A stretch of DNA of 32,000 nucleotides from Candidatus Syntropharchaeum caldarium (GCA_001766815.1 LYOS01000002.1:30001-62000), one strand, 5' to 3'. Shown: positions 1-15,724, counted from the first letter of the stretch. The notes: generated from the letters alone by a model not told the origin. Made by a program: numbers and translations.

Positions 1-764
1 AGGGGGTTCTTGAGAAGGTTTACATCTCATCCATCAACCCCAAAGATGGGATATTTGCTATAGAGGAGAACAAGGTAGTCAGTAGGCCCACAAACACAAA
101 ATTAAGTGCCCTTGCAGTAAAAGAGGAGGCTGCAAAGGTATTAGAGCCGTTAGTTCTCAAGATTGTTAATGAAAAAATTGCCATCAAATTACCTGAGTTG
201 AGCGAGATATTAAAAGAGACCTATGGAAATTCTGGCATAACAGATGATCTCGTCCTGATGGCAAGCGATAATCTTGAGATAGGTACCCAGGTGCATATAC
301 TGAGGAGGAAAGATGCGGTTGTAGTTCAGCTTCCTGAGGAGAGATTAATAGATGAAGTCAAGAAAAAGATATTCTTTGAAGTGAAAAAGGAGGGTGAGAT
401 CGATAAGGAAATCCTTATCGAGGAACTATCTAAGAGAATACCCACAGAAAAGAAGACGTTTGATGATGCTATCGCATACCTCATAGATGATGGAAAGTTG
501 GAGTTTGATAAAGAGTCCGATAAGCTCTCATTACCAAGGAAAAAAGATAAACCAGTAAAGCCAAAGAAAAGGATCATTATTAAAGAAGAAGGAACGACGA
601 GTGAGATAATAAATAAAATAGGGGAGATAGTGGAAGAGACTGACATTATAGAAGATGTCAGGATAGAGATTGTCAAGGACCTGTCTGCAAAAGAGCTCAA
701 GGAGCTTCTTGAGAGAACCGGCGAGATGAGTATAAAGTTAATGGCCAGGAGAAAGGAGATATGA
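1..764 (+). CDS. 3' part of a larger protein that begins upstream of the window. It is the first visible gene of the PglZ/methylase operon, and its function cannot be read from this fragment. By context it could be the large DUF499/BrxC-like ATPase partner.
   Basis: I translated nt 3-197 in the frame of the 198..764 ORF (GVLEKVYISSINPKDGIFAIEENKVV...) and found no stop. The TTG at 198 is therefore internal and the ORF is open to the window edge. The tail is K/E-rich and helical. Its stop overlaps the next start (ATGA at 761-764). Confidence 0.6.
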   Translation, partial: GVLEKVYISSINPKDGIFAIEENKVVSRPTNTKLSALAVKEEAAKVLEPLVLKIVNEKIAIKLPELSEILKETYGNSGITDDLVLMASDNLEIGTQVHILRRKDAVVVQLPEERLIDEVKKKIFFEVKKEGEIDKEILIEELSKRIPTEKKTFDDAIAYLIDDGKLEFDKESDKLSLPRKKDKPVKPKKRIIIKEEGTTSEIINKIGEIVEETDIIEDVRIEIVKDLSAKELKELLERTGEMSIKLMARRKEI

Positions 765-1675
765 TAGAGATCGCCGGGGGTTCAATAAAGATTAACGACG
801 TAAGCAAACTCGTTCATGGTAACCCGATAGATGGAGTATTTGAATCCTTAAACGATATATGGAGTCATGCATGGTTCAAAGACGATGAGTATTATCCCCT
901 CGGGGAGGAGCTGGCATCAAAATTCGAAGAACAGGTTTTCAATCTTTATCCTGAGATATACGATTGTATATTAACAAATGCAGAAAGGAGCGATAAAATA
1001 AGCGAGGTACTTTCAAAGCCCCGGTATTGCCTTGTTGTAATGGATGGAATGAGTTTAAGAGAGGTTTTGCCATTATTGAAGGAATTTAAAAAATATGGTG
1101 AGGTCAAATACAGATATGCATACTCAGCAATCCCAAGCGAGACGGAATTTTTTACGAGACGACACTTTAACACAGCATCCCCCTCCCAAATAAAATCCAG
1201 CGAAAGATATCACTTTGTCCATTTGCAAAGGGAGGATGATATCGAGGATATACCTTCAGACAAAGATAAGTTGATAGCCTGGTCAACATACCCAGATTCT
1301 ATCTTTTCCCAATTTAAAAGTGGTTTTGAAACCCAGGACCTCAAAGAGGTCTTCAATAAGACGAAGGATATTCTACTTAGGTTACTTGAGCACCTATCAT
1401 CCTCTAAGGAAATCATCATCACATCAGATCATGGATATTTTGTCGATACATTCTCGTGGAAGGGCTTGGATGACTTTCCAAGCGGGGAGAGATACTCGTT
1501 CAACATTCCAGAATCACTTAAGAGATACTGTAGGCAGTTCGATGACTACTGGATACTTGTGGGAAGGTACAACACGATAAAGCGGGGGAAGTACACTCAT
1601 GTGAGACATGGGGGGCTGTCATTCCTTGAGACGATAATACCCTTCATTGAAGTAAAAAGAGAGGGAGGAGAGTAA
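761..1675 (+). CDS. pglZ: Minimal PglZ-domain protein (alkaline-phosphatase superfamily), 304 aa
   Basis: PglZ/alkaline-phosphatase hallmarks are in the expected order: LVVMDGMSLRE (metal-binding Asp, aa 91-101), AIPSETEFFTRR (nucleophile Ser/Thr region), IITSDHGYF (aa 218-227) and HGGLSFLETIIPFIEV (aa 283-298). It has an ATGA overlap with the upstream gene, and its stop lies 1 nt before the next ATG. Confidence 0.8.
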   Translation: MIEIAGGSIKINDVSKLVHGNPIDGVFESLNDIWSHAWFKDDEYYPLGEELASKFEEQVFNLYPEIYDCILTNAERSDKISEVLSKPRYCLVVMDGMSLREVLPLLKEFKKYGEVKYRYAYSAIPSETEFFTRRHFNTASPSQIKSSERYHFVHLQREDDIEDIPSDKDKLIAWSTYPDSIFSQFKSGFETQDLKEVFNKTKDILLRLLEHLSSSKEIIITSDHGYFVDTFSWKGLDDFPSGERYSFNIPESLKRYCRQFDDYWILVGRYNTIKRGKYTHVRHGGLSFLETIIPFIEVKREGGE

Positions 1676-1676
1676 T

Positions 1677-4271
1677 ATGCCATACATTGAAAGAGATTTC
1701 CCAATCGAGCCGATCGATGAGATCGCATGGAGCGAGAGCAATGCTAGAAAACCTATATATGAAATGCATAAATGGTTTGCAAGAAGGGTCGGGAGTACAT
1801 TTAGAGCCTTAATACTTGGAACTTTCCTTGATGATGATCCAATGAAATATTATTACAGAAAAAACGAGCTGAAGAATGGAGAGGGAAAGCCACCGATCGT
1901 GCTTGACCCGTTCATGGGAGGGGGAACCACGATCATAGAAGGTCATAGATTGGGCTGTAAAATGATTGGTGTTGACATTAATCCTTTAGCATGGTTTATT
2001 ACAAAAAAAGAAATTGAACAAGTAGATAAGAAAAAGGTTGAAGAGGAGTTCAAAAGTATAGAGATGGCTTTAAAAGATAAGATTCTTTCATATTATAAAA
2101 CAAAATGTGATAATGGCCATGATGCAGATATTATGTATGTTTTTTGGATTAGAAAAATAAAATGTGAAAATTGCAAAAAAGAGGTTCCACTGTTGCGATC
2201 ATCATTGCTTTCGAATCCAAAGGGCAAAGATAATGTATACGCTTGCGTAAAATGTAAATCAATAGTTAAAATAAAGCCTGGAGATTCTCAAAAGTGTCCA
2301 TATTGCGGCGAGGATTTCGAAAATCCCTATGTTACCGATAAAAAATATACATGTCCTCACTGTGGATATCCTGGAGATATTACAACTGCATGGTTATCGG
2401 AAGATACACCTCCTCAAGAAGAAATGTTTGCAATAGAATATTATTGTGAAGTTTGTGGACGTAACTATAAATTGCCAGATAAAAAGGACATTGAGAGATT
2501 TGAAAGAATAAAAGATGAATACAATCAAAAGAAAGACGAATTGTTGGGAATCCTCATCCCAGATCAAAAAGTTCCATGGGAAGTTATGGCGACAAAACGT
2601 CCAAGAAGTACAGTATATAAATATTTTCATCAATTTTTCAACGAGAGGCAATTATTGTCCTTATCCCTACTTTTCGAAGAAATATTAAAAATAAAAGAGA
2701 AAAGCATACGCGAATTTTTCTTAATCGTCTTTTCTGACTGTTTAAATGCGAATAATATGTTTTGTATCTACAATACTCAAGGAGAGAAACTTGAACCCCT
2801 GTTTGGAGGTCATTATTATTCCCCTCCAAAAATGCCTGTGGAAAACAATGTTTGGGGAACGAAGATTGGCAGAGGAACTTTTATTAAATACTACAAAAAA
2901 GGATTAGAAGCTCTAGACTATCAAAAAAAACCATTTTTAATTAAATTCCAAACGAAGACTGGAAAATATGGGAAAGAAAGAAGAGAAAGAACTACAATCA
3001 TTAACAATAACGAGATGATAAATGGGGTATTGGCTAATGACTTCAGTGAGCTTATTAAGAACAAAAATGTTCTTTTAAAATCAGAAACATCAGAAGATAT
3101 GAGTTTTATACCAGATAATTCTGTTGATGCAATAATTTCAGACCCGCCTTATTATGATAATATAATGTATTCAGAGCTCTCGGATTTCTTTTATTCTTGG
3201 TTACATCTAGCTTTAAAAGATGATTATCCTGATGTTTTTGGTAAGAAGTTAAGTAGAAACGATAGGGAAATATTAGTAAATAGAAAAATTGGTAAAGACG
3301 ATAATTTCTTCATAGAAACATTAGGTAGAGTTTTTAGAGAATGTTATCGAGTCCTAAAAGATAATGGAATTATGGCCTTTGTCTTTCAACATAAGAGAAC
3401 AGAAGCATGGGCTGCGGTTCTAAAAGCGTTGCTAAAATCAGGCTTTTATGTGGTTGCGGTTTATCCAACCCATGGCGAGACGCCCAGCGGTGTAAGGGCA
3501 TACGGGATTAACTACAACTCCATCCTTGTCTGTCGGAAGCTACTTGAGAGAAAGCAGCAGCAGATACCCTGGATGATATTCGAGAGCGAATTGAGAAGCC
3601 ATGTAGATATGAGCATTGAGGAGATCCTTGATAAGCATCCTGATTTAGAGGTTGAGGATGCATTCATTATTGCGATGGGGAAGGCTTTACAGGTATACAG
3701 CCAGAACTACGGGAATATAGTAAAGGATGGTGAGATGTTTGATGTCTCAGAGGTTTCGATGGAGATCATGGGGGATATCGTATTTGATTCGCTTTTAAGG
3801 CGCGTTCTTGAGAGGGTACCTGATGTTGATAGGATATCAAAGATATACGCCAGCGTTTTTGCCAAGAAAGAGAAGATAACAAATGATACGATAAACAAGC
3901 TCACCAGACATGGCGGTATAGAAACAGATGCGTTTGAAGAGAAAAAACTGGTAAAGAAGAACAAAAAGAAGGGGATAATGACCATTACGCCTCCAAAAGA
4001 GAGGAAGGACTTTATAGCCAAAAAAATAGAGAAAGGTCTTCCCATAACCTACATTGATGCCGCTCATCTTCTATGGATAGAGAGGGAGAAGAATGGCAAC
4101 TTCAGAAACACGCTTGAAATGATTTTACGAACAGGTCTTGAGAAAGAAAGATTGGAGCAGTACATAAGGTTCATGGTCGAGAGAACGAACGATGAAACAT
4201 GGAAGAAGATAGAATACACCTTTAAATCCGCACCTGACAAGACCTTAGAGGACTTTGGCATGGAGGGATAA
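1677..4271 (+). CDS. DUF1156/COG1743-type adenine-specific DNA methyltransferase with nested Zn-ribbons (PglXI-like)
   Basis: The N-terminal signature ERDFPIEPIDEIAWSESNARKPIYEMHKWFARR is typical of DUF1156. SAM-binding motif I is VLDPFMGGGTT (aa 75-85, nt 1905-1931 for DPFMGGGTT). Catalytic motif IV is SDPPYYDN (DPPY at nt 3141-3152). Six Cys pairs or CxxxH motifs lie between them (aa 144-260). Confidence 0.85.
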   Translation: MPYIERDFPIEPIDEIAWSESNARKPIYEMHKWFARRVGSTFRALILGTFLDDDPMKYYYRKNELKNGEGKPPIVLDPFMGGGTTIIEGHRLGCKMIGVDINPLAWFITKKEIEQVDKKKVEEEFKSIEMALKDKILSYYKTKCDNGHDADIMYVFWIRKIKCENCKKEVPLLRSSLLSNPKGKDNVYACVKCKSIVKIKPGDSQKCPYCGEDFENPYVTDKKYTCPHCGYPGDITTAWLSEDTPPQEEMFAIEYYCEVCGRNYKLPDKKDIERFERIKDEYNQKKDELLGILIPDQKVPWEVMATKRPRSTVYKYFHQFFNERQLLSLSLLFEEILKIKEKSIREFFLIVFSDCLNANNMFCIYNTQGEKLEPLFGGHYYSPPKMPVENNVWGTKIGRGTFIKYYKKGLEALDYQKKPFLIKFQTKTGKYGKERRERTTIINNNEMINGVLANDFSELIKNKNVLLKSETSEDMSFIPDNSVDAIISDPPYYDNIMYSELSDFFYSWLHLALKDDYPDVFGKKLSRNDREILVNRKIGKDDNFFIETLGRVFRECYRVLKDNGIMAFVFQHKRTEAWAAVLKALLKSGFYVVAVYPTHGETPSGVRAYGINYNSILVCRKLLERKQQQIPWMIFESELRSHVDMSIEEILDKHPDLEVEDAFIIAMGKALQVYSQNYGNIVKDGEMFDVSEVSMEIMGDIVFDSLLRRVLERVPDVDRISKIYASVFAKKEKITNDTINKLTRHGGIETDAFEEKKLVKKNKKKGIMTITPPKERKDFIAKKIEKGLPITYIDAAHLLWIEREKNGNFRNTLEMILRTGLEKERLEQYIRFMVERTNDETWKKIEYTFKSAPDKTLEDFGMEG

Positions 4272-4277
4272 ATAAAA

Positions 4278-4673
4278 ATGGATTTGCAGAGAGCGGGTTT
4301 TCATGTGATAGATATTAAAAGGTTCAGGGAAGTCGAAGAGAAAGACCTGCCTTTAATGCATGATACCAGCATAATAAACCTGTTAAGGGATATAGAACGG
4401 GGAAGGCTTCAGAAATTTACAGTTGTTGATGGACTGGATGAATTCATGCGAAGTTCAACGGATGAGGCTATCGAGCAGGCAAGGAAAATCTTGAATAAAG
4501 GCATTACGGACATGCTTGCAATTGATGCATCGTTGGTCTTTGTTGTAAAATGCGATATCGAAAGAATCCCGGATAACCCCAGTGTTCATAATAAACCTCT
4601 GGCCATGATCTTCCCGAGGCCACATGATATTGGCTCTATGGAGCCAAGGTATCTCTATTATCCCATAATATAG
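4278..4673 (+). CDS. Hypothetical 131-aa protein with a Walker-B-like strand (FTVVDGLDEF) but no P-loop
   Basis: The ATG lies 7 nt after the methylase stop. The ORF ends (TAG) 7 nt before the GTG of the ATPase gene, which has an AGGAGG Shine-Dalgarno sequence. I recognise no family. The segment FTVVDGLDEF...ASLVFVVK resembles the Walker-B and following strand of RecA/KaiC-like folds. Confidence 0.5.
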   Translation: MDLQRAGFHVIDIKRFREVEEKDLPLMHDTSIINLLRDIERGRLQKFTVVDGLDEFMRSSTDEAIEQARKILNKGITDMLAIDASLVFVVKCDIERIPDNPSVHNKPLAMIFPRPHDIGSMEPRYLYYPII

Positions 4674-4680
4674 GAGGTGT

Positions 4681-5865
4681 GTGATTATAGGTCTCAATAT
4701 TGGAAAAGATAAGGACGGAAACGAGATATTCATTGATACGGGTAGGTCACATGCTATTTTCATTTGTGGTAAAAGGGGTGCCGGGAAGTCCTATACAATG
4801 GGCGTAATCGGAGAAGAACTTATCCAAAGATCAAAAGAAATAGTGCCTATAATTGTTGACCCTATCGGCGTTTATTGGACAATGTCAAAAGAGAACGACC
4901 TTGAGGATATCATGGACTGGGATATTATACCTCAGGCTTTTCCTGTACATCTTATAGTTCCCGGTGAGCCAGAGAGAGTTTACGGCGAGGAACTAATGGA
5001 TGAGATGGAATACTTGGGTATTAAGATCATACCTCTTAAAATCCCGCCTTACGATCTGGAGCCTGATGAATGGCTTGATCTCTATGGATTATCGCTTACA
5101 GATGCAATGGGAATCGCTCTTTTCAGGGCTACTGCAAAGTTATTCTCAAAGAAGGAAGATGAGGGATTTAGGTATACGTTTGATAATATCATAGAAGAGA
5201 TACTGAATGATGAGTATGCCCATGAAAGAACCAAAGTTGCACTGATGAGCAGACTGGATGTGTCAAAGAGATGGGGGATATTTGGAGAGGAAACATGGAA
5301 GACGTTTGATTTATTTCAGCCCGGTGTTTTGAATATCATAGACCTCAGCCATCTGGATCCACACAGGTTTGGACTGAGGCAATTTATCTTATCAATAGTA
5401 TGTAAGAAGCTCTTCTATGAACGGATCAGGGCACGGAAGTTAGAGGAATTCGGTAAGATTGTGGATGTGCCAAGGATATGGTTGCTGATCGATGAAGCAC
5501 ATCAGTTTATACCAACAGGACTAACAACAGCATCAAAACCCGTGCTTATAAGATGGGTAAAGGAGGGGAGACAACCTGGTTTATCAGTCGTATTAGCCAC
5601 TCAACAGCCATCAGCGATAGATAAGGAGGTGTTATCCCAGTGTGATATGGTGATCTCCCACAAGGTAACGATGAAACTGGATTTGGATGCGTTAAACGCC
5701 TTAAGCCACGAATATATGAAGCTGGAATTTAAGGAATACATGAAAAAGATAAAGAATCCAGGAGAAGCAATATATCTGGATGATGAGGCGGAAAAGATTA
5801 GATTGATTAGAATAAGAAAGAGGATGTCAAGGCACGGAGGGAGGGAGATCCTTAGGAGATATTAA
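4681..5865 (+). CDS. HerA/DUF87 (COG0433)-type P-loop ATPase lacking an N-terminal HAS-barrel
   Basis: Walker A is HAIFICGKRGAGKSYTMG (about nt 4768-4791). Walker B is IWLLIDEAHQFIP (D271 E272). The typical HerA/FtsK-like C-terminal motif GRQPGLSVVLATQQPSAIDKEVLSQCDMVISHKV is present. GTG start preceded by taGGAGGtgt. Confidence 0.8.
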   Translation: MIIGLNIGKDKDGNEIFIDTGRSHAIFICGKRGAGKSYTMGVIGEELIQRSKEIVPIIVDPIGVYWTMSKENDLEDIMDWDIIPQAFPVHLIVPGEPERVYGEELMDEMEYLGIKIIPLKIPPYDLEPDEWLDLYGLSLTDAMGIALFRATAKLFSKKEDEGFRYTFDNIIEEILNDEYAHERTKVALMSRLDVSKRWGIFGEETWKTFDLFQPGVLNIIDLSHLDPHRFGLRQFILSIVCKKLFYERIRARKLEEFGKIVDVPRIWLLIDEAHQFIPTGLTTASKPVLIRWVKEGRQPGLSVVLATQQPSAIDKEVLSQCDMVISHKVTMKLDLDALNALSHEYMKLEFKEYMKKIKNPGEAIYLDDEAEKIRLIRIRKRMSRHGGREILRRY

Positions 5866-5943
5866 AGATGGGCACACTCTCAAAAAATTGACTTAAACAC
5901 TCAAACAACTGATGGGTTATGAGCAATCACAGAGATGCCTCCC

Positions 5944-5951
5944 CTATATAT
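5944..5951 (+). promoter_or_regulatory. TATA-box-like element (CTATATAT), possibly driving a leaderless transcript of the VapB-like gene
   Basis: ctatatat lies 26 nt upstream of the ATG at 5977. Archaeal TATA boxes centre about 26-27 nt upstream of the transcription start. No Shine-Dalgarno sequence precedes ATG 5977. Confidence 0.35.
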
Positions 5952-5976
5952 CCGTGCAGTTTACATAGGTAAACAC

Positions 5977-6531
5977 ATGTCAAGAAAATTGATTTCGATC
6001 CATGAGGAAACCTACGAACAGCTTGAGGATTTGAAGGTGTCCCCATCCGAGAGTTTTAATGACGTCCTCAGCCGCCTCATTTCTTGGCCTGCCGAGGTTT
6101 TGAGATCACTTCAGGAAAACGCTGCTCGTGCGAGGGGCGAGACCCCTCTCGATATTGAGGTTATTGAGACCGTTCCTGTCCCAAAAGAGCCAAATATGAT
6201 CGCATTAGAAGAAAGATGCTGTGAAACACCTATTCCTCTGGTAATATATGATGACCTGAAAGGTAAGAAGGGCAATGAAGTGAAAAGGAGCCTGATTGTT
6301 GGTCGTGGCAGGGTATTCCTTCCTCCTGGGAGGTACATCGTGGAATTACAGGCAAGATGTGAGGAAGATAGATTCAATAAAAAACCAAGCATAAGGCAGA
6401 TATCCCTATACGAGCCGAGAACTATCAAATTTCACCTTAAGCAACCCACAGCTAATGAAAGGAGAGACCTTCTCTCACATCAGATTGAACCGCCCCCTGA
6501 AGAAGAACCACCATACAGGCAAATGAAATAA
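5977..6531 (+). CDS. Fusion protein: N-terminal archaeal VapB-type antitoxin-like domain plus an unknown beta-rich C-terminal region of about 140 aa
   Basis: MSRKLISIHEETYEQLEDLKVSPSESFNDVLSRLI matches the archaeal 'putative antitoxin VapB' pattern (M.K.IsI.eevYe.L..lK...ESFSdvi.rL). I prefer ATG 5977 over the track start at 5935 because of that homology start and the TATA spacing. The C-terminus (GRGRVFLPPGRYIVELQA...) looks like a beta-sandwich. Confidence 0.6.
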   Translation: MSRKLISIHEETYEQLEDLKVSPSESFNDVLSRLISWPAEVLRSLQENAARARGETPLDIEVIETVPVPKEPNMIALEERCCETPIPLVIYDDLKGKKGNEVKRSLIVGRGRVFLPPGRYIVELQARCEEDRFNKKPSIRQISLYEPRTIKFHLKQPTANERRDLLSHQIEPPPEEEPPYRQMK

Positions 6532-7119: not shown

Positions 7120-7275
7120 TCAAGAAATCTTTTTCAGGGTCAGCCCTTCCTTCGTGATAACCCACACAACCTCATCACCCTTCCTGATACCCACGGCCTG
7201 AGCAAGCACACGTGGGAGGGAAATCTTGAGTGACCCTTTCACCTCCCCGACCCGATACCTTTTTATTTCATCCAT
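7120..7275 (-). CDS. AbrB/SpoVT/MazE-family DNA-binding protein (antitoxin-like), 51 aa, absent from the ORF track
   Basis: Reverse-strand translation from ATG (7275..7273) to TGA (7122..7120) gives MDEIKRYRVGEVKGSLKISLPRVLAQAVGIRKGDEVVWVITKEGLTLKKIS*. The core SLKISLPRVLAQAVGIRKGDEV is the classic swapped-hairpin AbrB/MazE motif (..v.iPk.ir..lgi..Gd.v). Confidence 0.7.
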   Translation of the reverse strand: MDEIKRYRVGEVKGSLKISLPRVLAQAVGIRKGDEVVWVITKEGLTLKKIS

Positions 7276-8029: not shown

Positions 8030-9226
8030 TTAAGCTTTAATGTGTTTAACGTGCTGTTTAAAAGTGGAGTTGTGGCGTCTGCGACTTTCAAAAGACCTGT
8101 TTTCCTTTTTGAATTTTAACCTGGGATATTCCTCCTGTGGTAGAGCTTTGACCTTGACTTTATGCGATTTGCATATATTACGAAAGACCATGTGATCCTC
8201 TGGACTTAAGAGTGTGATCGCCTCGCCTGACCCACCTGCTCTTGCGGTTCGCCCGATGCGGTGCATATACTCCTGTGGATCCTGTGATAGGTCGTAGTTT
8301 AAAATATGCGTGACATCTTTGATATCCAGACCTCTGGCTGCAACCGGTGAAGCAACAAGAAAGTCGTACCTGCCCTTGTGAAAGTTCTCGATTACACGAA
8401 GACGCTTTCCCTGATCGATCTTGCCGTGCAGCATCCCGTTTTTTATTCCATGATAGCGAAGGTTTTTTGCAACCAGTTCGACATTTGCTCGTGTTGAACA
8501 GAAGACAATTGCCCGTTCTATTCTGTCCTTCTTAAGTAGATGGACGAGCAGTGAAAATTTTTCATTTGTGATAACCTCATAGTAATATTGCTTAAGATAT
8601 TTTTCTGTAACCTGCAGTTCTGCCTGAGCAACGATCGGATGGTTCATGTATCGTTTTTTAAGTTGATCTATCTCTCTGGAGATGGTTGCACCGAACAAAA
8701 GAATCTGGCGATTTTTTGGCGTATGATCCAGCATCTTTTTTATATCTTCGATAAATCCCATCTCGACCAGCTTATCAGCTTCATCGAGAGCGAAACATTT
8801 GAGTTGTGATAGATCAAGCGTTCTCCTTCGAAGATGGTCGAGCAAACGACCCGGTGTACCCACAACAATATCTGCCTCAGAAATCTCTTCTATCTGGGAG
8901 TTAATTGATACTCCCCCATAAACACTGACGATCGAAGAATTCAAATATCTGCCAAACTTCTTCAATTCCTTCGATATTTGATCTGCAAGTTCTCGCGTTG
9001 GCGTTACGATTAAAGCGTAAAGTCCTTCTCCGGGAACTATTTTTTCAAGCACAGGTACGCCAAACGCTGCAGTTTTTCCGGATCCGGTCTTCGATTTCCC
9101 TATCACGTCTTTTCCAGACATAATTAGAGGAATTGCTTTTTTCTGAATCGGCGTGGGAGTTACTATACCCATCTCCTTCAGTGCTCTGACAGTCTCAGGC
9201 CTGGAACAAAGTACATCAAACGACAT
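8030..9226 (-). CDS. DEAD-box ATP-dependent RNA helicase
   Basis: Q-motif region (FDVL...GIVTPTPIQKKAIP), motif I (KSKTGSGKTAAF), DEAD (ALDEADKLV), GAT (a SAT variant) and HRIGRTARAG, followed by a basic C-terminal tail. ATG 9226 is preferred over the upstream GTG at 9271. Confidence 0.9.
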   Translation of the reverse strand: MSFDVLCSRPETVRALKEMGIVTPTPIQKKAIPLIMSGKDVIGKSKTGSGKTAAFGVPVLEKIVPGEGLYALIVTPTRELADQISKELKKFGRYLNSSIVSVYGGVSINSQIEEISEADIVVGTPGRLLDHLRRRTLDLSQLKCFALDEADKLVEMGFIEDIKKMLDHTPKNRQILLFGATISREIDQLKKRYMNHPIVAQAELQVTEKYLKQYYYEVITNEKFSLLVHLLKKDRIERAIVFCSTRANVELVAKNLRYHGIKNGMLHGKIDQGKRLRVIENFHKGRYDFLVASPVAARGLDIKDVTHILNYDLSQDPQEYMHRIGRTARAGGSGEAITLLSPEDHMVFRNICKSHKVKVKALPQEEYPRLKFKKENRSFESRRRHNSTFKQHVKHIKA

Positions 9227-9611
9227 TTTTCTTCTTCTCCTTTTGGAATTACCACTTACAGGAGATGCCACAAAACTCTCAGAATTTTAGTAAAAATTCA
9301 CTGAATCTTGATGAAACAGAAATGGTATAAAGATAGCATGACTTTACAACATGTTTCCCATATCCAGTAATGAACTCCAATAAATATAAAAAGTGTATCA
9401 TGCTTTTAAGTGTTTCTGTGGTATTTCCAAAAAAGAGCGGACAGGTATAATTTTACCTCTCTAAACACACATCGTGAAAAATTTGTAATAGTCACCTGTT
9501 TTTAGAAAAGATTTTTATATTGCAACACCAAGATATAGTTTGATTGGGCTTAAAACAGCAATAATTTGCCACAACTATAGTAAAATTTTAGAGAGGGGAG
9601 AGAAGAGGTCA

Positions 9612-11219: not shown

Positions 11220-11818
11220 ACAAGACCTTTCCCATAGTCACTCGATATCTTTCGGGTCTCGGTTCGCTCACATTCTGGACACTCAAGCACCTTATTCTTG
11301 CGTATCATTCCAACCTTGCACTTTGAACAGAATGCTTTGATAACGCCGTGGCGAGGATGAGTTGTATCAATCCTCAACGTCGCAGGATCAAGTATACGCC
11401 CTTTTATAATATCCTGATATCCAAACTCATGCTTCAGATCTGAGACGTAGGATTTTTTTACATTTGAGACGTGGATTGCAGCCATTATATCACCGGCAAT
11501 CTCCCGATTTTCAGACCCCTCGATGAAAGCGAGGTCAACAAGCACAACAGAACTCTTGATCCCTGAAACGGTTCCATAGACGATGTCCCCGCGCTTAATA
11601 ACTGGTGGTGCATCACACAGTGGTTTTACACCGATAACCCGTTTCTTTGGGTCTTCAACGACCGTACCAACAATGGTCGCATATATATTACCCTTCTCAT
11701 CAAAAGCTCCTTCTCCTGTGGTGTACTCCTCAGATATACCGATAATATCACCTGGCAATACGGTCTTTGCCCTTTCTGCTTTTGGTTCAGTCGCAGCCAC
11801 GCCTTCTCCATCTACCAT
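11216..11818 (-). CDS. csl4: Exosome complex RNA-binding protein Csl4
   Basis: N-terminal domain (VLPGDIIG), central S1 domain (GDIVYGTVSGIKSSVVLVDL) and a C-terminal Zn-ribbon (CSKCKVGM...CPECERTE). ATG 11818 is preferred; a GTG at 11827 is possible. Confidence 0.85.
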   Translation of the reverse strand: MVDGEGVAATEPKAERAKTVLPGDIIGISEEYTTGEGAFDEKGNIYATIVGTVVEDPKKRVIGVKPLCDAPPVIKRGDIVYGTVSGIKSSVVLVDLAFIEGSENREIAGDIMAAIHVSNVKKSYVSDLKHEFGYQDIIKGRILDPATLRIDTTHPRHGVIKAFCSKCKVGMIRKNKVLECPECERTETRKISSDYGKGLV

Positions 11819-11930
11819 TCTTTTCACACCTGTGATTATCTACCCACCTGATTTAAATAAAGCTTTCGATGGACAGAGATCTAAATACGCAACCAAACCT
11901 AAATATACGATCAGATCGGATGGAAATAAT

Positions 11931-12845
11931 ATGAGCAGGAGAGGGCCACTTGAGCGTTACTTTGAGATCGTGAGAGGAAAGCGGGATGCTGCGTATCTTA
12001 TGACAAAACAAACCATCATGGAGGATGGGAGAACGCTTCTTGACCATAAGCTTGCAGCAGCGGAAACAATGATGGAGAGCTGCCACCTATGTGAACGAAG
12101 GTGCAATGCAGACCGCAGGAGTGGAGAAGTTGGATACTGCGGTGTTGATGCCGTATCCAGGATTGCATCTGAGTTTCTTCATTTTGGTGAGGAGGAAGAA
12201 CTTGTCCCATCCCACACGATCTTCTTTACAGGCTGCACATTCTCGTGTGTTTACTGTCAGAACTGGGATATTGCAACATCTCCACAGTCAGGCACACCAG
12301 CCCTCCCTGAAATTGTCTGTGAGGCGATTGTGCGGCGCAATATCGAGGGTGCAAGGAATGTTAACTTTGTTGGCGGCGATCCAACACCACACATCCCAAC
12401 AATACTTCGGATTCTCAACCGCTGCAATGTAAACACACCCATCATCTTCAACTCAAATATGTATCTATCAAACGAGGGGATGGAACTGCTCGATGGTATC
12501 GTTGATCTGTATCTCGGTGATTTCAGGTATGGGAATGATGCCTGTGCAAAGAAATACTCAAATGTTGATCGATACTGGGAGGTTGTAACACGAAACTTCA
12601 TGTCTGCAGCCGCAGATGCCGAGGTTCTCATCAGACATCTCGTTCTCCCAGGACATCTTGACTGCTGCACCCGTCCAATAATGGAGTGGACGGCAGCAAA
12701 TATGGATAGAGTACGGTTCAATCTGATGTTTCAGTACCATCCATCTTACAGGGCAAATCTCTACCCTGAGATTGACAGGCGCCTCACACACGATGAGATG
12801 GCATATGCGACGGAGATGTATAACAGCTTACTTGCTGAACCATGA
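11931..12845 (+). CDS. Radical SAM protein, PflX-like (pyruvate formate-lyase-activase-related, COG1313-type)
   Basis: Radical SAM motif FTGCTFSCVYCQNW (CxxxCxxC) plus an N-terminal Cys cluster (CHLCERRCNADR...GYCG). The start is at ATG 11931. The track ORF start at 11583 runs antisense through csl4 and is rejected. Confidence 0.85.
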   Translation: MSRRGPLERYFEIVRGKRDAAYLMTKQTIMEDGRTLLDHKLAAAETMMESCHLCERRCNADRRSGEVGYCGVDAVSRIASEFLHFGEEEELVPSHTIFFTGCTFSCVYCQNWDIATSPQSGTPALPEIVCEAIVRRNIEGARNVNFVGGDPTPHIPTILRILNRCNVNTPIIFNSNMYLSNEGMELLDGIVDLYLGDFRYGNDACAKKYSNVDRYWEVVTRNFMSAAADAEVLIRHLVLPGHLDCCTRPIMEWTAANMDRVRFNLMFQYHPSYRANLYPEIDRRLTHDEMAYATEMYNSLLAEP

Positions 12846-13687
12846 GAAAAAAACCAGAAAGTGATCCGGATCTGATCGCACAGGCAGCCCAGCTTGCGAT
12901 GCTTCTTGAGGTATCTGCATCCCCAAAGGCTGGAAATGTTGATAGGTGCCACGACTACCCTGATACCAGGTATGAGGACTTTCTTGCATCCTCTGTCGCT
13001 GTATATCCTGTCTTTAGAAAAGCGGCATTAAAGGACACTGGGGTGGGAAAACTCATCTTTGAGGCGGTTGAAGCAAGTAAAAGGTGGCACACCGGCGGTA
13101 ACACGCATTTTGGAGCGTTTATACTACTCATCCCACTTGTAATGGCAGGAGGGGTACAGGATCTTGCAAAAGAGATTGTTAGAGGCACTGGGTGGCAGGA
13201 TGCCATAGATTTCTACCGTGCATTCGCTATCGCAGGTGTAAGGGTTGGAAAGGTCAATGATCTCAATCTTGGTAGCCAGGAGTCTCTTGATCGAATAAGG
13301 GAGGAAAAAATTACGCTCTTTGATATATTCAAGATCTCATCATCTTACGATTCGGTATCTGCTGAGTGGATAAACGGCTTTGAACGATCATTCAAATACG
13401 CGTGGATTGTTGGCACCAATGTCCGCGAGTACGGGATGAACGACGGTATTGTCCTAACATTCATGCAACTACTTGCGGAATATCCTGATACATTCATCGC
13501 GATGAAATCTGGAAATGAAACCGCACTCGATATCTCAGCGACTGCCTCAAAACTTGCCTGTGAGTTTGATCTTGATAAAATCAGGTCGTTCGATGAAGAA
13601 CTCATTGAAAGAGGAATAAACCCTGGTGCCACGGCCGATATGATCATCGCATCCATATTTATAGCACTCATCAAGGGGTGGCTTTAG
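12842..13687 (+). CDS. Triphosphoribosyl-dephospho-CoA synthase (CitG/MdcB)-family protein
   Basis: LLEVSASPKAGNVDR matches the CitG N-terminal K/PG(L/N)VD motif. Length and helical character fit the family. ATGA overlap with the radical SAM gene. Confidence 0.75.
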   Translation: MRKKPESDPDLIAQAAQLAMLLEVSASPKAGNVDRCHDYPDTRYEDFLASSVAVYPVFRKAALKDTGVGKLIFEAVEASKRWHTGGNTHFGAFILLIPLVMAGGVQDLAKEIVRGTGWQDAIDFYRAFAIAGVRVGKVNDLNLGSQESLDRIREEKITLFDIFKISSSYDSVSAEWINGFERSFKYAWIVGTNVREYGMNDGIVLTFMQLLAEYPDTFIAMKSGNETALDISATASKLACEFDLDKIRSFDEELIERGINPGATADMIIASIFIALIKGWL

Positions 13688-15724
13688 ATGCTGTATGATA
13701 TCATCATCTGGTATCTTTTTTTCCTTTTAGCAGGGCTGATCGCGCTCCCGTTTGTTAAAGATATTGGGTATGCATCTTCAAAGGCTGTTGCCATTCTTGT
13801 TACAACTTATCTCACATTTATAACAGGTTATCTGTATTGCTATGATCTCATAACCGTTGTTACCTCTTTTCTTCTCCTTGCGACGATTGCTGCAGGATAT
13901 ATGATATATCGCAAGGATTTTAAGATTCAGTGGAAGGTTTTTATCGAGTTTGAACTGGTGTTTGCGGTCGCTTTTTTCATTTTCGCGCTGGTGCGTGCAT
14001 TCTCCCCTGAGATCTACTTCACAGGTGGTGAGAAGCTTGGTGAGCTCGGATTTTTGAATGCGATCCTGAGATCGGGATCCTTCCCACCGTACGATCCCTA
14101 CTTTGGCGGTGAGCCGATGCAGTACTACTATTTTGGGCATCTGATCGTTGCAAACATCATAAAACTCACGGGTATAAGCCCTGAAGTAGGATTTAACCTT
14201 GCAACAGCCTCTCTTTTTGCCCTGAGTGTTCAGATTGCATACGGTCTCGGATTCAGGCTGAATATTCGTCGCGCATACGCTATGATAACCGTAGTCTTTC
14301 TTCTGATACTTGGAAATCTATCAGGTATCATCCAGTTTCTGCTTCAACATGCATCAGACCCATCTTCTGCCATCTACTTCAACTACTGGTATGCATCGCG
14401 GATAATCCCGGATACGATCAATGAATTCCCGTACTTCAGCTTTCTGCATGGTGATCTGCACCCCCACATGATCGCGATACCGTTTAAAATTATGCTCCTG
14501 ACCCTCTTTCTACAACTTCTTTCTGAAAAAAAAGATAATACAGCTTTCGTAATTGCAGCTGGATTCTTCACAGGTTTTTTAGCACCACTTAACACCTGGG
14601 ATTATCCTGTATTTTTATTGTTGCTTCTTATAATCCTATGGACTGGACGATACGGTCTTGATAAGATTGCTCTTTCGATATCAGCTGCCATAATCCCCTA
14701 TCTACCGTTTCTCCTCTCAACCACAGGACGCGGAATCGGTTTTGTCACAGAACGAACAGAGCTTATCAACTTCTTTGTAATACATGGTTTATTTCTTTTC
14801 ATACTCTTCTCATACCTCTTATTGAGGCTTGAGAGAAAATATCAGAACTATCTCATCATTATGATCCTTATTCTGCTTCCGATATCTTATCTCATACAGT
14901 TCCAGACACTATTTCTGCTACTGCCGCTCATCATCCTGCCGCTGTGGCTTCGATTCTGGGATGGTGGAGCAGATCACGCCTTTATAGATATTCTCATTCT
15001 TGTCGGGGCTCTTATCGCGCTTGGTTGCGAACTCTTCTACGTCGATGATGCTTTCACTGGAAAAATTGAGCGCCTGAACACGGTATTCAAGCTCTACCTG
15101 AATGTATGGATCTTCTGGGCAATTGCATCTGCTTATGCACTCAGAAATATCCTCATGCAACCTGGAAGACATGGTATGATGAGACGTATCTGGACGATCA
15201 CACTTACGATACTTCTGATCTCAGCCTCGATCTATCCTGTTTTTGCAACATCGGGGAGATCTCATGCATTTGGGGTTAAACCAACGCTTGATGGCTTAGC
15301 ATGGGCAAGAGATGAGTTTACATCTGATATGGATGCTCTTGATTGGATAAATAAGAACATAGATGGACATCCAGTATTTCTAACCGTGCCTGCACAGGAC
15401 TACAGGTGGGATTCGAGGGTTGCATCTGTAACAGGAGTTCCCATCATAATTGGATGGATGGGAGAGGAGATAATGTGGAGAGGGGATCGCGAAGAAGTTA
15501 ACAGGAGATTGAAGGATGTATCAAAGGTGCTATCTTCAGATAAAATCGATTCTGAGGTGATAGCGATCCTTGAAGATTACAATGTAAGTTATATCTACAT
15601 AGGGGAGATTGAAAGGACGAAGTTTCCTGAGGGTGTTCTGAAGTTTGATGGCTGGAGTGGGTGCGAGGCTGTCTTTAAGAATGAGGGGGTTACAATCTTT
15701 GAGCTTCTGGATGAAAACGCTTAA
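13688..15724 (+). CDS. DUF2298 'Chlor_Arch_YYY' polytopic membrane protein (GT-C-like fold family)
   Basis: More than 12 hydrophobic spans, the family-name motif PMQYYYFGHLI, the EFPYFSFLHGDLHPHM motif, and a soluble C-terminal domain. The ATG immediately follows the TAG of the CitG-like gene. Confidence 0.85.
   Translation: MLYDIIIWYLFFLLAGLIALPFVKDIGYASSKAVAILVTTYLTFITGYLYCYDLITVVTSFLLLATIAAGYMIYRKDFKIQWKVFIEFELVFAVAFFIFALVRAFSPEIYFTGGEKLGELGFLNAILRSGSFPPYDPYFGGEPMQYYYFGHLIVANIIKLTGISPEVGFNLATASLFALSVQIAYGLGFRLNIRRAYAMITVVFLLILGNLSGIIQFLLQHASDPSSAIYFNYWYASRIIPDTINEFPYFSFLHGDLHPHMIAIPFKIMLLTLFLQLLSEKKDNTAFVIAAGFFTGFLAPLNTWDYPVFLLLLLIILWTGRYGLDKIALSISAAIIPYLPFLLSTTGRGIGFVTERTELINFFVIHGLFLFILFSYLLLRLERKYQNYLIIMILILLPISYLIQFQTLFLLLPLIILPLWLRFWDGGADHAFIDILILVGALIALGCELFYVDDAFTGKIERLNTVFKLYLNVWIFWAIASAYALRNILMQPGRHGMMRRIWTITLTILLISASIYPVFATSGRSHAFGVKPTLDGLAWARDEFTSDMDALDWINKNIDGHPVFLTVPAQDYRWDSRVASVTGVPIIIGWMGEEIMWRGDREEVNRRLKDVSKVLSSDKIDSEVIAILEDYNVSYIYIGEIERTKFPEGVLKFDGWSGCEAVFKNEGVTIFELLDENA

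Follow-up and report, generated by a model that had tools for sequence, protein, structure and literature searches.

The first 5,865 nucleotides of the window, a 32,000-nucleotide stretch of DNA from Candidatus Syntropharchaeum caldarium (GCA_001766815.1, LYOS01000002.1:30001-62000), hold five genes that all lie on the plus strand and follow one another with junctions of -4, +1, +6 and +7 nt. The open reading frame (ORF) table exactly reproduces the genes, sizes, common direction and junctions listed by an earlier, sequence-only reading of this DNA. The five genes are:

1..764, plus strand: C-terminal 253 codons of a DUF499 (BrxC-like/HmaC-like) ATPase of 998 aa, cut by the window edge
761..1675, plus strand: standalone PglZ-type enzyme of the alkaline-phosphatase/NPP superfamily, 304 aa, presumed effector (SCAL_000577; from a structure model and invariant residues)
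1677..4271, plus strand: DUF1156-type N6-adenine DNA methyltransferase, 864 aa (from Pfam DUF1156 and N6_N4_Mtase)
4278..4673, plus strand: inactive-STAND-like small protein, 131 aa (from hhalign and synteny)
4681..5865, plus strand: HerA/FtsK-like P-loop ATPase, 394 aa, GTG start, presumed ring DNA translocase (from Pfam DUF87 and Walker motifs)

We consider it probable that these five genes are the complete locus of a methylation-based system against mobile elements: a Type-3 BREX-related (BR) system in which a HerA-like ATPase has replaced the superfamily 2 (SF2) helicase.

The first gene can be completed from contig L001 (12.3 kb, public read set), which overlaps the window by about 7.7 kb (7,698 nt) with two mismatches and adds 4.6 kb of upstream DNA. 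The large protein that had appeared truncated in the window is thereby identified as the 998-aa DUF499 ATPase (L001 2379-5375). Pfam and PADLOC searches found no BrxA, BrxF or helicase in these 4.6 kb, and no ORF of L001 or of the window island matches either BrxF or BrxA, a DUF1819-type DNA-binding protein. The Lhr-like helicase BrxHII is absent at the locus, and L001 and the flanks of the system in the window contain no SF2 helicase. The sequence-only reading had suggested that the locus may not be canonical BREX, and the upstream DNA, without BrxF, BrxHII or BrxA, bears this out. The five genes form an island with a G+C content of 0.32-0.41, compared with 0.39-0.49 (mostly 0.43-0.49) in the remaining 26 kb, which encode ordinary metabolic and housekeeping proteins.

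The DUF499 ATPase matches the Pfam family (6.8e-14) and the PADLOC model HmaC (1.7e-13), has intact Walker A (GYLGSGKS at 87) and Walker B (LMLIDE at 177) motifs, and is 36-74% identical to its orthologues in related loci. In the methylase, Pfam detects DUF1156 (27.9 bits, cut-off 24) and N6_N4_Mtase (55.2 bits), while PADLOC returns PglXI and HmaB at the same level (both 3.8e-33) and mad2 at 7e-13; the score of 139 bits with NCBIfam DUF1156_antiphage is under the cut-off of 1000. The motifs FMGGG and DPPY lie at residues 79 and 489, and the insert between motif I and DPPY carries three zinc sites (C144/H148/C163/C166, C190/C193/C207/C210 and C226/C229/C257/C260) that are kept in all orthologues examined. 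Sequence profiles of PglZ are weak: Pfam gives 19.9 bits (cut-off 25) and NCBIfam BREX_PglZ_3 gives 20.6 bits (cut-off 250) over the C-terminal 38 residues only. Its AlphaFold model (pLDDT 91.7; structure prediction was confined to database homologues) best resembles PglZ-containing PorX proteins (Foldseek E 2e-11) and the Acinetobacter BREX PglZ 9zn5_B (E 5e-9), with generic NPP enzymes ranking behind at about 1e-5. The predicted metal ligands and threonine nucleophile (D95, T128, D223, H224 and H283, the last in H283-G-G) are invariant in 26 homologues. Because the model best matches PorX and BREX PglZ and the catalytic residues are invariant, the assignment as PglZ, with a predicted bare catalytic domain, stands despite the sub-cut-off profiles. 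Both the PglZ and the DUF1156 assignments of the sequence-only reading therefore hold, the second with a profile above its cut-off, and its description of a PglZ reduced to the catalytic domain agrees with a length of 304 aa that leaves no additional domains.

The 394-aa ATPase scores 52.6 bits with Pfam DUF87 (cut-off 23.2; 8.4e-14) and has Walker A (GKRGAGKS at 30), Walker B (LLIDE at 268) and conserved Arg/QQPS residues, so that its earlier assignment to HerA/DUF87 is upheld. Canonical archaeal and defence HerA proteins combine an N-terminal HAS barrel with a RecA-like ATPase in about 500-600 aa. Here Walker A lies at residue 30, compared with about 146 in solved HerA proteins, and there is therefore no room for the barrel. 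NCBIfam HerA models give 38-46 bits against cut-offs of 800-970, and the PDB sequence matches, to defence and archaeal HerA proteins, cover the C-terminal half only. By sequence, the protein is HerA/FtsK-like and not an orthologue of canonical HerA. Among the PADLOC models it fits mad8 best, along its entire length (2.9e-19), and with 58-95% identity to orthologues in the same five-gene set it is the best conserved of the five proteins.

The 131-aa protein is without a Walker A motif and ends in a conserved PRPHD...YYPI tail. With hhalign it matches the small proteins of helicase-bearing relatives (probability 97.8%, E 1.2e-12) and the published Type-3 BR 'iSTAND Representative_2' (probability 82%, E 1.1e-5), iSTAND denoting inactive STAND. 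AlphaFold predicts an alpha/beta fold (pLDDT 81.7) that matches P-loop NTPases only weakly (E at least 0.02); since the fold search gave nothing significant, it is by profile comparison and synteny that the protein is identified as iSTAND. Precomputed tables list Pfam DUF8076 for the gene and for its orthologues, but hmmscan did not reproduce it; it is a label only, of which we found no mention in the literature. Since homologues also precede the helicase in helicase-bearing relatives, the protein is, as far as profiles and gene order tell, an inactive-STAND core component of Type-3 BR and not a HerA-specific partner. The sequence-only reading had seen a small-protein/HerA pair in the position of a helicase: HerA does occupy the helicase slot, but the small protein is not its dedicated partner.

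Type-3 BR systems have been described as a DUF499 ATPase, a DUF1156-type methylase, a BrxHII-like helicase without nuclease, a standalone active PglZ and an inactive STAND protein (Rakesh & Krishnan, NAR 2026, PMC12839542). A subset of their methylases has extra 4-Cys zinc fingers, and a separate iSTAND gene occurs in 82% of Type-3 BR taxa (PMC12839542). The locus shares four of these five features: the DUF499 ATPase, the DUF1156 methylase with its zinc insert, an intact PglZ of about 300 aa and an inactive STAND protein of about 130 aa, in a gene order also found in many metagenomic and plasmid relatives. The fifth differs, in that an ATPase of about 390 aa of the HerA/FtsK type stands where the published systems have a BrxHII-like SF2 helicase. 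The main text of PMC12839542 mentions HerA for BRC only, and in its supplement text, which may be incomplete, we found neither HerA within Type-3 BR nor Syntrophoarchaeum nor the PRPHD motif.

But what occupies the fifth position in more distant relatives? Loci with a PglZ 28-31% identical to the one studied here keep the order DUF499, PglZ, methylase and small protein (about 130 aa), and in seven of them an SF2 helicase of 526-536 aa (ResIII and Helicase_C) comes directly after the small gene, which it often overlaps by 4 nt. L075/76 have a 956-aa SNF2-type protein in the helicase slot, and in L029 an Lhr-type helicase lies upstream on the opposite strand. In both a PglZ tree and a methylase tree (neighbour-joining, without support values), all HerA-bearing loci fall together, as one clade within the wider set. 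On the simplest reading of these sequence relationships, the HerA-like ATPase replaced the helicase once, and long co-evolution followed. What the computations show is which genes are present, that their catalytic motifs are intact, that they are conserved together, that both motors take the same position and, on these trees, that the swap has a single origin.

The five-gene set recurs well beyond the window. All five families occur together on five independent contigs or contig pairs found through HerA homologues 57-61% identical to the one studied here, and a PglZ-based metagenome scan yielded further five-gene loci among the best 80 of 367 matches. Within the set, identities are about 46-64% for the methylase, 36-83% for the small protein and 33-74% for the DUF499 ATPase and PglZ. 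As the five genes recur in many independent contigs at 33-95% identity, their arrangement is far beyond chance. They are co-directional in the window, L014, L019 and L020; in L008, L010, L011/12, L023, L025-27, L094 and L095, a unit of DUF499 and PglZ diverges from one of methylase, small gene and HerA. Of the 15 lineages of the clade with the region present, 13 have a HerA gene that is intact or cut by the contig end only, starting 7-30 nt after the small gene. The sequence-only reading had allowed that HerA might be an unrelated neighbour; it is co-conserved with PglZ, DUF1156 and DUF499. In the available flanks of 14 further lineages of the clade, neither an SF2 helicase nor BrxA or BrxF is conserved. 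A DUF499-alignment scan of a genome collection returned one locus only, in a Theionarchaea metagenome-assembled genome (L013); the named hosts are two, both archaeal (Syntrophoarchaeum and this Theionarchaea genome), and the other loci are metagenome contigs.

Several observations weigh against a five-gene system with HerA as its motor. HerA is absent from the Theionarchaea locus (L013 16922-17550) and reduced to its first 107 codons in the L015/17/18 lineage (L015 7289-7627), and the other four genes can therefore persist without it. Conversely, L002 (9243-12097) encodes a HerA-like protein of 62% identity in an apparent operon between an S49/NfeD-like peptidase and RadA, surrounded by archaeal housekeeping genes (MCM, ribosomal proteins, Alba) and with the other four system genes absent; this orphan, the chief argument against an exclusive link, means that the HerA subfamily is not tied to the system alone. 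In the helicase clade, many contigs, some of them short, carry no motor gene at all. One example is the Haloplanus rubicundus plasmid pCBA1113-01 (L098, 20722-27219), which encodes DUF499, an 'alkaline phosphatase', a DNA methyltransferase and a 132-aa hypothetical protein without an adjacent motor gene; upstream of these, a PD-(D/E)XK and UvrD-helicase pair (AddAB-like) is transcribed divergently. The fifth, motor slot may thus be optional rather than essential. The lack of support values in the trees and the share of matches covered by the metagenome scan count on the same side, as does the fact that we infer defence, methylation and the coupling of HerA to PglZ by analogy.

How, then, do other explanations fare? 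The first is a canonical type 3 BREX (BrxF, BrxC, PglXI, BrxHII, PglZ, BrxA) with its missing genes beyond the window. The sequence-only reading had assigned DUF499 and DUF1156 to the core of type 3 BREX, a class reportedly going back to the classification of Goldfarb et al. 2015. That assignment is wrong, or outdated: the combination of a DUF499 ATPase and a DUF1156 methylase is the hallmark of DUF499-centred BREX-related (Hma/BR) systems, and in type 3 BREX the ATPase is BrxC, of another clade than DUF499, and the methylase is PglXI, without the DUF1156 helical domain (PMC12839542). The two kinds of system do share a general design, in which PglZ is combined with a large ATPase, a small (i)STAND protein, an N6 methylase carrying an inserted target-recognition domain and a motor driven by ATP, and the PglXI and BREX_PglZ_3 matches given above are weak hits to BREX-3 models. 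They part in that the present locus has no BrxA or BrxHII, a 304-aa PglZ that is not multi-domain, lacks accessory domains and stays far below the BREX_PglZ_3 cut-off, an ATPase of the DUF499 clade that matches DUF499/HmaC and not the BrxC models, and a methylase with the DUF1156 N-domain, which is assigned to BR systems (PMC12839542). In addition, the 4.6 kb upstream hold only the DUF499 gene and two ORFs without a BREX match, the downstream genes are housekeeping, and the 14 further lineages of the clade, with the flanks available, lack a conserved BrxA, BrxF or Lhr-type helicase; a canonical BREX is almost certainly the wrong description. A more serious contender is a four-gene core whose motor is missing or encoded elsewhere, with the HerA-like gene as an independent neighbour, such as a mobile or repair ATPase. 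The loci with absent or truncated HerA, the orphan HerA in its housekeeping context and the helicase-clade loci without an adjacent motor, such as the Haloplanus plasmid, all speak for it. It must be set against the constant position of HerA 7-30 nt behind the small gene in 13 of 15 lineages, which persists when the halves of the system are rearranged between co-directional and divergent, so that HerA travels with the methylase-small gene unit. The strong conservation of HerA (58-95%) argues for purifying selection within the system, the HerA-bearing loci are monophyletic in the PglZ and methylase trees, and a HerA of the same family is fixed in BRC beside PglZ-type genes. Taken together, we find an independent neighbour unlikely.

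The kinship with BRC raises the question of whether the locus is itself a member of BRC or MADS and not a DUF499-centred BR system. A HerA/FtsK translocase is universal in BRC (PMC12839542), and the HerA-like ATPase shares 45-49% identity with its counterparts in BRC loci (L003/L004, L096/L097 and L099); among these loci is that of Halogeometricum limi, which the supplement of PMC12839542 lists for BRC. In both systems a HerA/FtsK ATPase from one family occurs together with a BrxC-like ATPase and a PglZ effector, and self-marking by modification is proposed for both. In H. limi and related loci, HerA is accompanied by QueF/TGT, GNAT, a 1,300-aa ATPase and a long PglZ. BRC's own components are a DUF6079 ATPase, an active STAND NTPase, DUF4007, a long PglZ with an inactive Swi2/Snf2 N-domain and GNAT/TGT (deazaguanine-type) modification; all of these are absent here (for DUF4007, no similar ORF was detected by Pfam or PADLOC in the window island or L001), and DUF499, an inactive STAND, a bare PglZ and an N6-adenine methylase are found instead. 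As for MADS of Pseudomonas aeruginosa, Mad8 is the best defence-library model for the HerA-like ATPase and the methylase matches mad2, but only two of the eight MADS models are matched: mad8 and the accessory mad2. No protein of the locus matches the models of Mad6 and Mad7, which are mandatory in MADS, a system of eight genes that include a kinase and a specificity subunit. Since the affinities of the DUF499 ATPase, PglZ, the methylase and the small protein are all with Type-3 BR relatives, membership in BRC or MADS is very improbable. The Hma system (PADLOC; equivalent to Type-1 BR) is close through its HmaB-like methylase and HmaC-like ATPase, but the locus has no HmaA helicase-nuclease and has PglZ, iSTAND and HerA instead. 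We give equally little credence to a non-defence module for host epigenetics or DNA maintenance, an orphan methylase with accessory ATPases. In its favour, the system has no restriction nuclease domain, and the orphan HerA of the same subfamily adjoins radA. Such a module fits poorly with the patchy, rare distribution, the low G+C relative to the host, related systems on plasmids, frequent pseudogenisation, neighbouring defence genes (HEPN, NurA/HerA, EVE, GmrSD and a putative Piwi-domain protein) and the homology to Hma/BR systems, for which antiphage activity has been reported (PMC11232893).

How might the five-gene Type-3 BR system with its HerA-like motor work? By analogy with BREX, Hma/BR, BRC and MADS, the DUF1156 methylase would mark host DNA at N6-adenine, with the zinc-ribbon insert reading the target motif. 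PglZ would join the STAND-type DUF499 ATPase and the inactive-STAND adaptor of 131 aa in a sensing and effector complex comparable to BrxC-BrxB-PglZ of BREX, where, going by the title of PDB entry 9zn5, a BrxC-BrxB fusion is bound to PglZ. Unmethylated incoming DNA could then be reeled towards PglZ by an ATP-driven ring of the HerA-like ATPase, and the metal-dependent phosphodiesterase site of PglZ would nick or degrade it, so that replication is blocked. Nicking activity of PglZ and models for Type-3 BR and BRC have been described (PMC12839542). In the methylation-based MADS, deletion of mad8 lowered resistance to the phage DMS3vir (bioRxiv 10.1101/2023.03.30.534895), which offers some precedent.

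What is distinctive here is the motor swap only. The sequence-only reading had proposed a distinct archaeal, methylation-coupled variant; non-canonical it is, but the core of DUF499 ATPase, PglZ, methylase and small protein has been known as 'Type-3 BR' since 2026, and the label 'archaeal' stands on the two named hosts only. The locus is thus a rare, conserved variant, and the gain is incremental. Its rarity shows in a search with the profile of the 131-aa protein, which retrieves no more than nine clusters (50% identity) from 1.84 billion representative proteins. Whether the HerA clade is a functionally distinct fourth BR subtype that bridges Type-3 BR and BRC, in which a hexameric double-stranded DNA pump and not a monomeric SF2 helicase feeds a bare PglZ, is in our judgement evenly balanced. 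If so, BREX-like systems would have an interchangeable 'motor slot'. In this clade the class of motor is exchanged while the sensing, modifying and effector core is kept, which is natural evidence for a modular, replaceable DNA-handling motor. The clade also ties together Type-3 BR and BRC, which were described separately. In the debate on how BREX-type systems stop phage DNA, PglZ has been proposed as a nicking effector only recently. A minimal system of five small genes, each with a single domain and a single function, would be a compact candidate for reconstitution and for dissecting the debated effector role of PglZ. To our knowledge, almost nothing is known about virus defence in alkane-oxidising archaea, and the locus would add a putative defence system to one of them.

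Around the locus, four further genes were considered as components and set aside. The two ORFs upstream of the DUF499 gene (374 and 246 aa) have no PADLOC match, only a weak winged helix-turn-helix match in Pfam (HTH_45, E 0.039) and no homologue in related loci. Directly after the system, at 5935-6531 on the plus strand of the window, lies a gene for a 198-aa protein with an N-terminal VapB/DUF7557 antitoxin-like domain, which was likewise rejected for want of a homologue in related loci. A MazE-like 51-aa ORF is found nearby (about 7120-7275, minus strand); neither of these two is kept in related loci, and they mark the border of the low-G+C island. The 413-aa DEAD-box/Helicase_C gene at 8030-9271 (minus strand) was rejected as the missing helicase: it is on the opposite strand, its product is typical of DEAD-box proteins, and it is not conserved beside the system elsewhere. 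Scans of the window for tRNA genes and Rfam families gave no match.

The related loci offer some further observations. L009 (3017-8665) shows signs of decay: its DUF499 and methylase genes are broken up into several ORFs, and HerA is intact. L043 (11962-15292) and, likewise, L044 are contigs without a detected helicase; behind the core they encode a PD-(D/E)XK nuclease and a protein of 754 aa whose match to the Piwi domain stays below threshold (23.9 bits, cut-off 28.9), which suggests an Argonaute-like add-on. In BRC-type loci, the gene directly before HerA encodes 316 or 372 aa and faintly resembles PglZ (19-21 bits with a PglZ profile) (L005 9049-11161, L006 and L007; L003 8886-11179): L005-7 look like a compact BRC variant, and HerA adjoining a PglZ-like gene may be a recurrent theme. 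One HerA-bearing subclade has an ORF of about 140 aa directly upstream of DUF499 and co-directional with it (L008 6447-6884, minus strand; L025 4935-5363; L026 5872-6294; L094 4079-4420, minus strand; L095 746-1168, minus strand). Its products are 72-87% identical, carry a GGGGG motif and have no Pfam match; the ORF, absent from the window, may be a sixth component. The EVE domain is a reader of modified bases, and small EVE-domain proteins are encoded directly downstream of HerA in L094 (8756-8992) and L095 (5563-5973). Finally, L008 lies in a context that resembles a defence island, with HEPN_Swt1 upstream (1-2388) and, downstream (11763-15502), a pair of NurA and a 501-aa HerA together with a D12-class adenine methylase.

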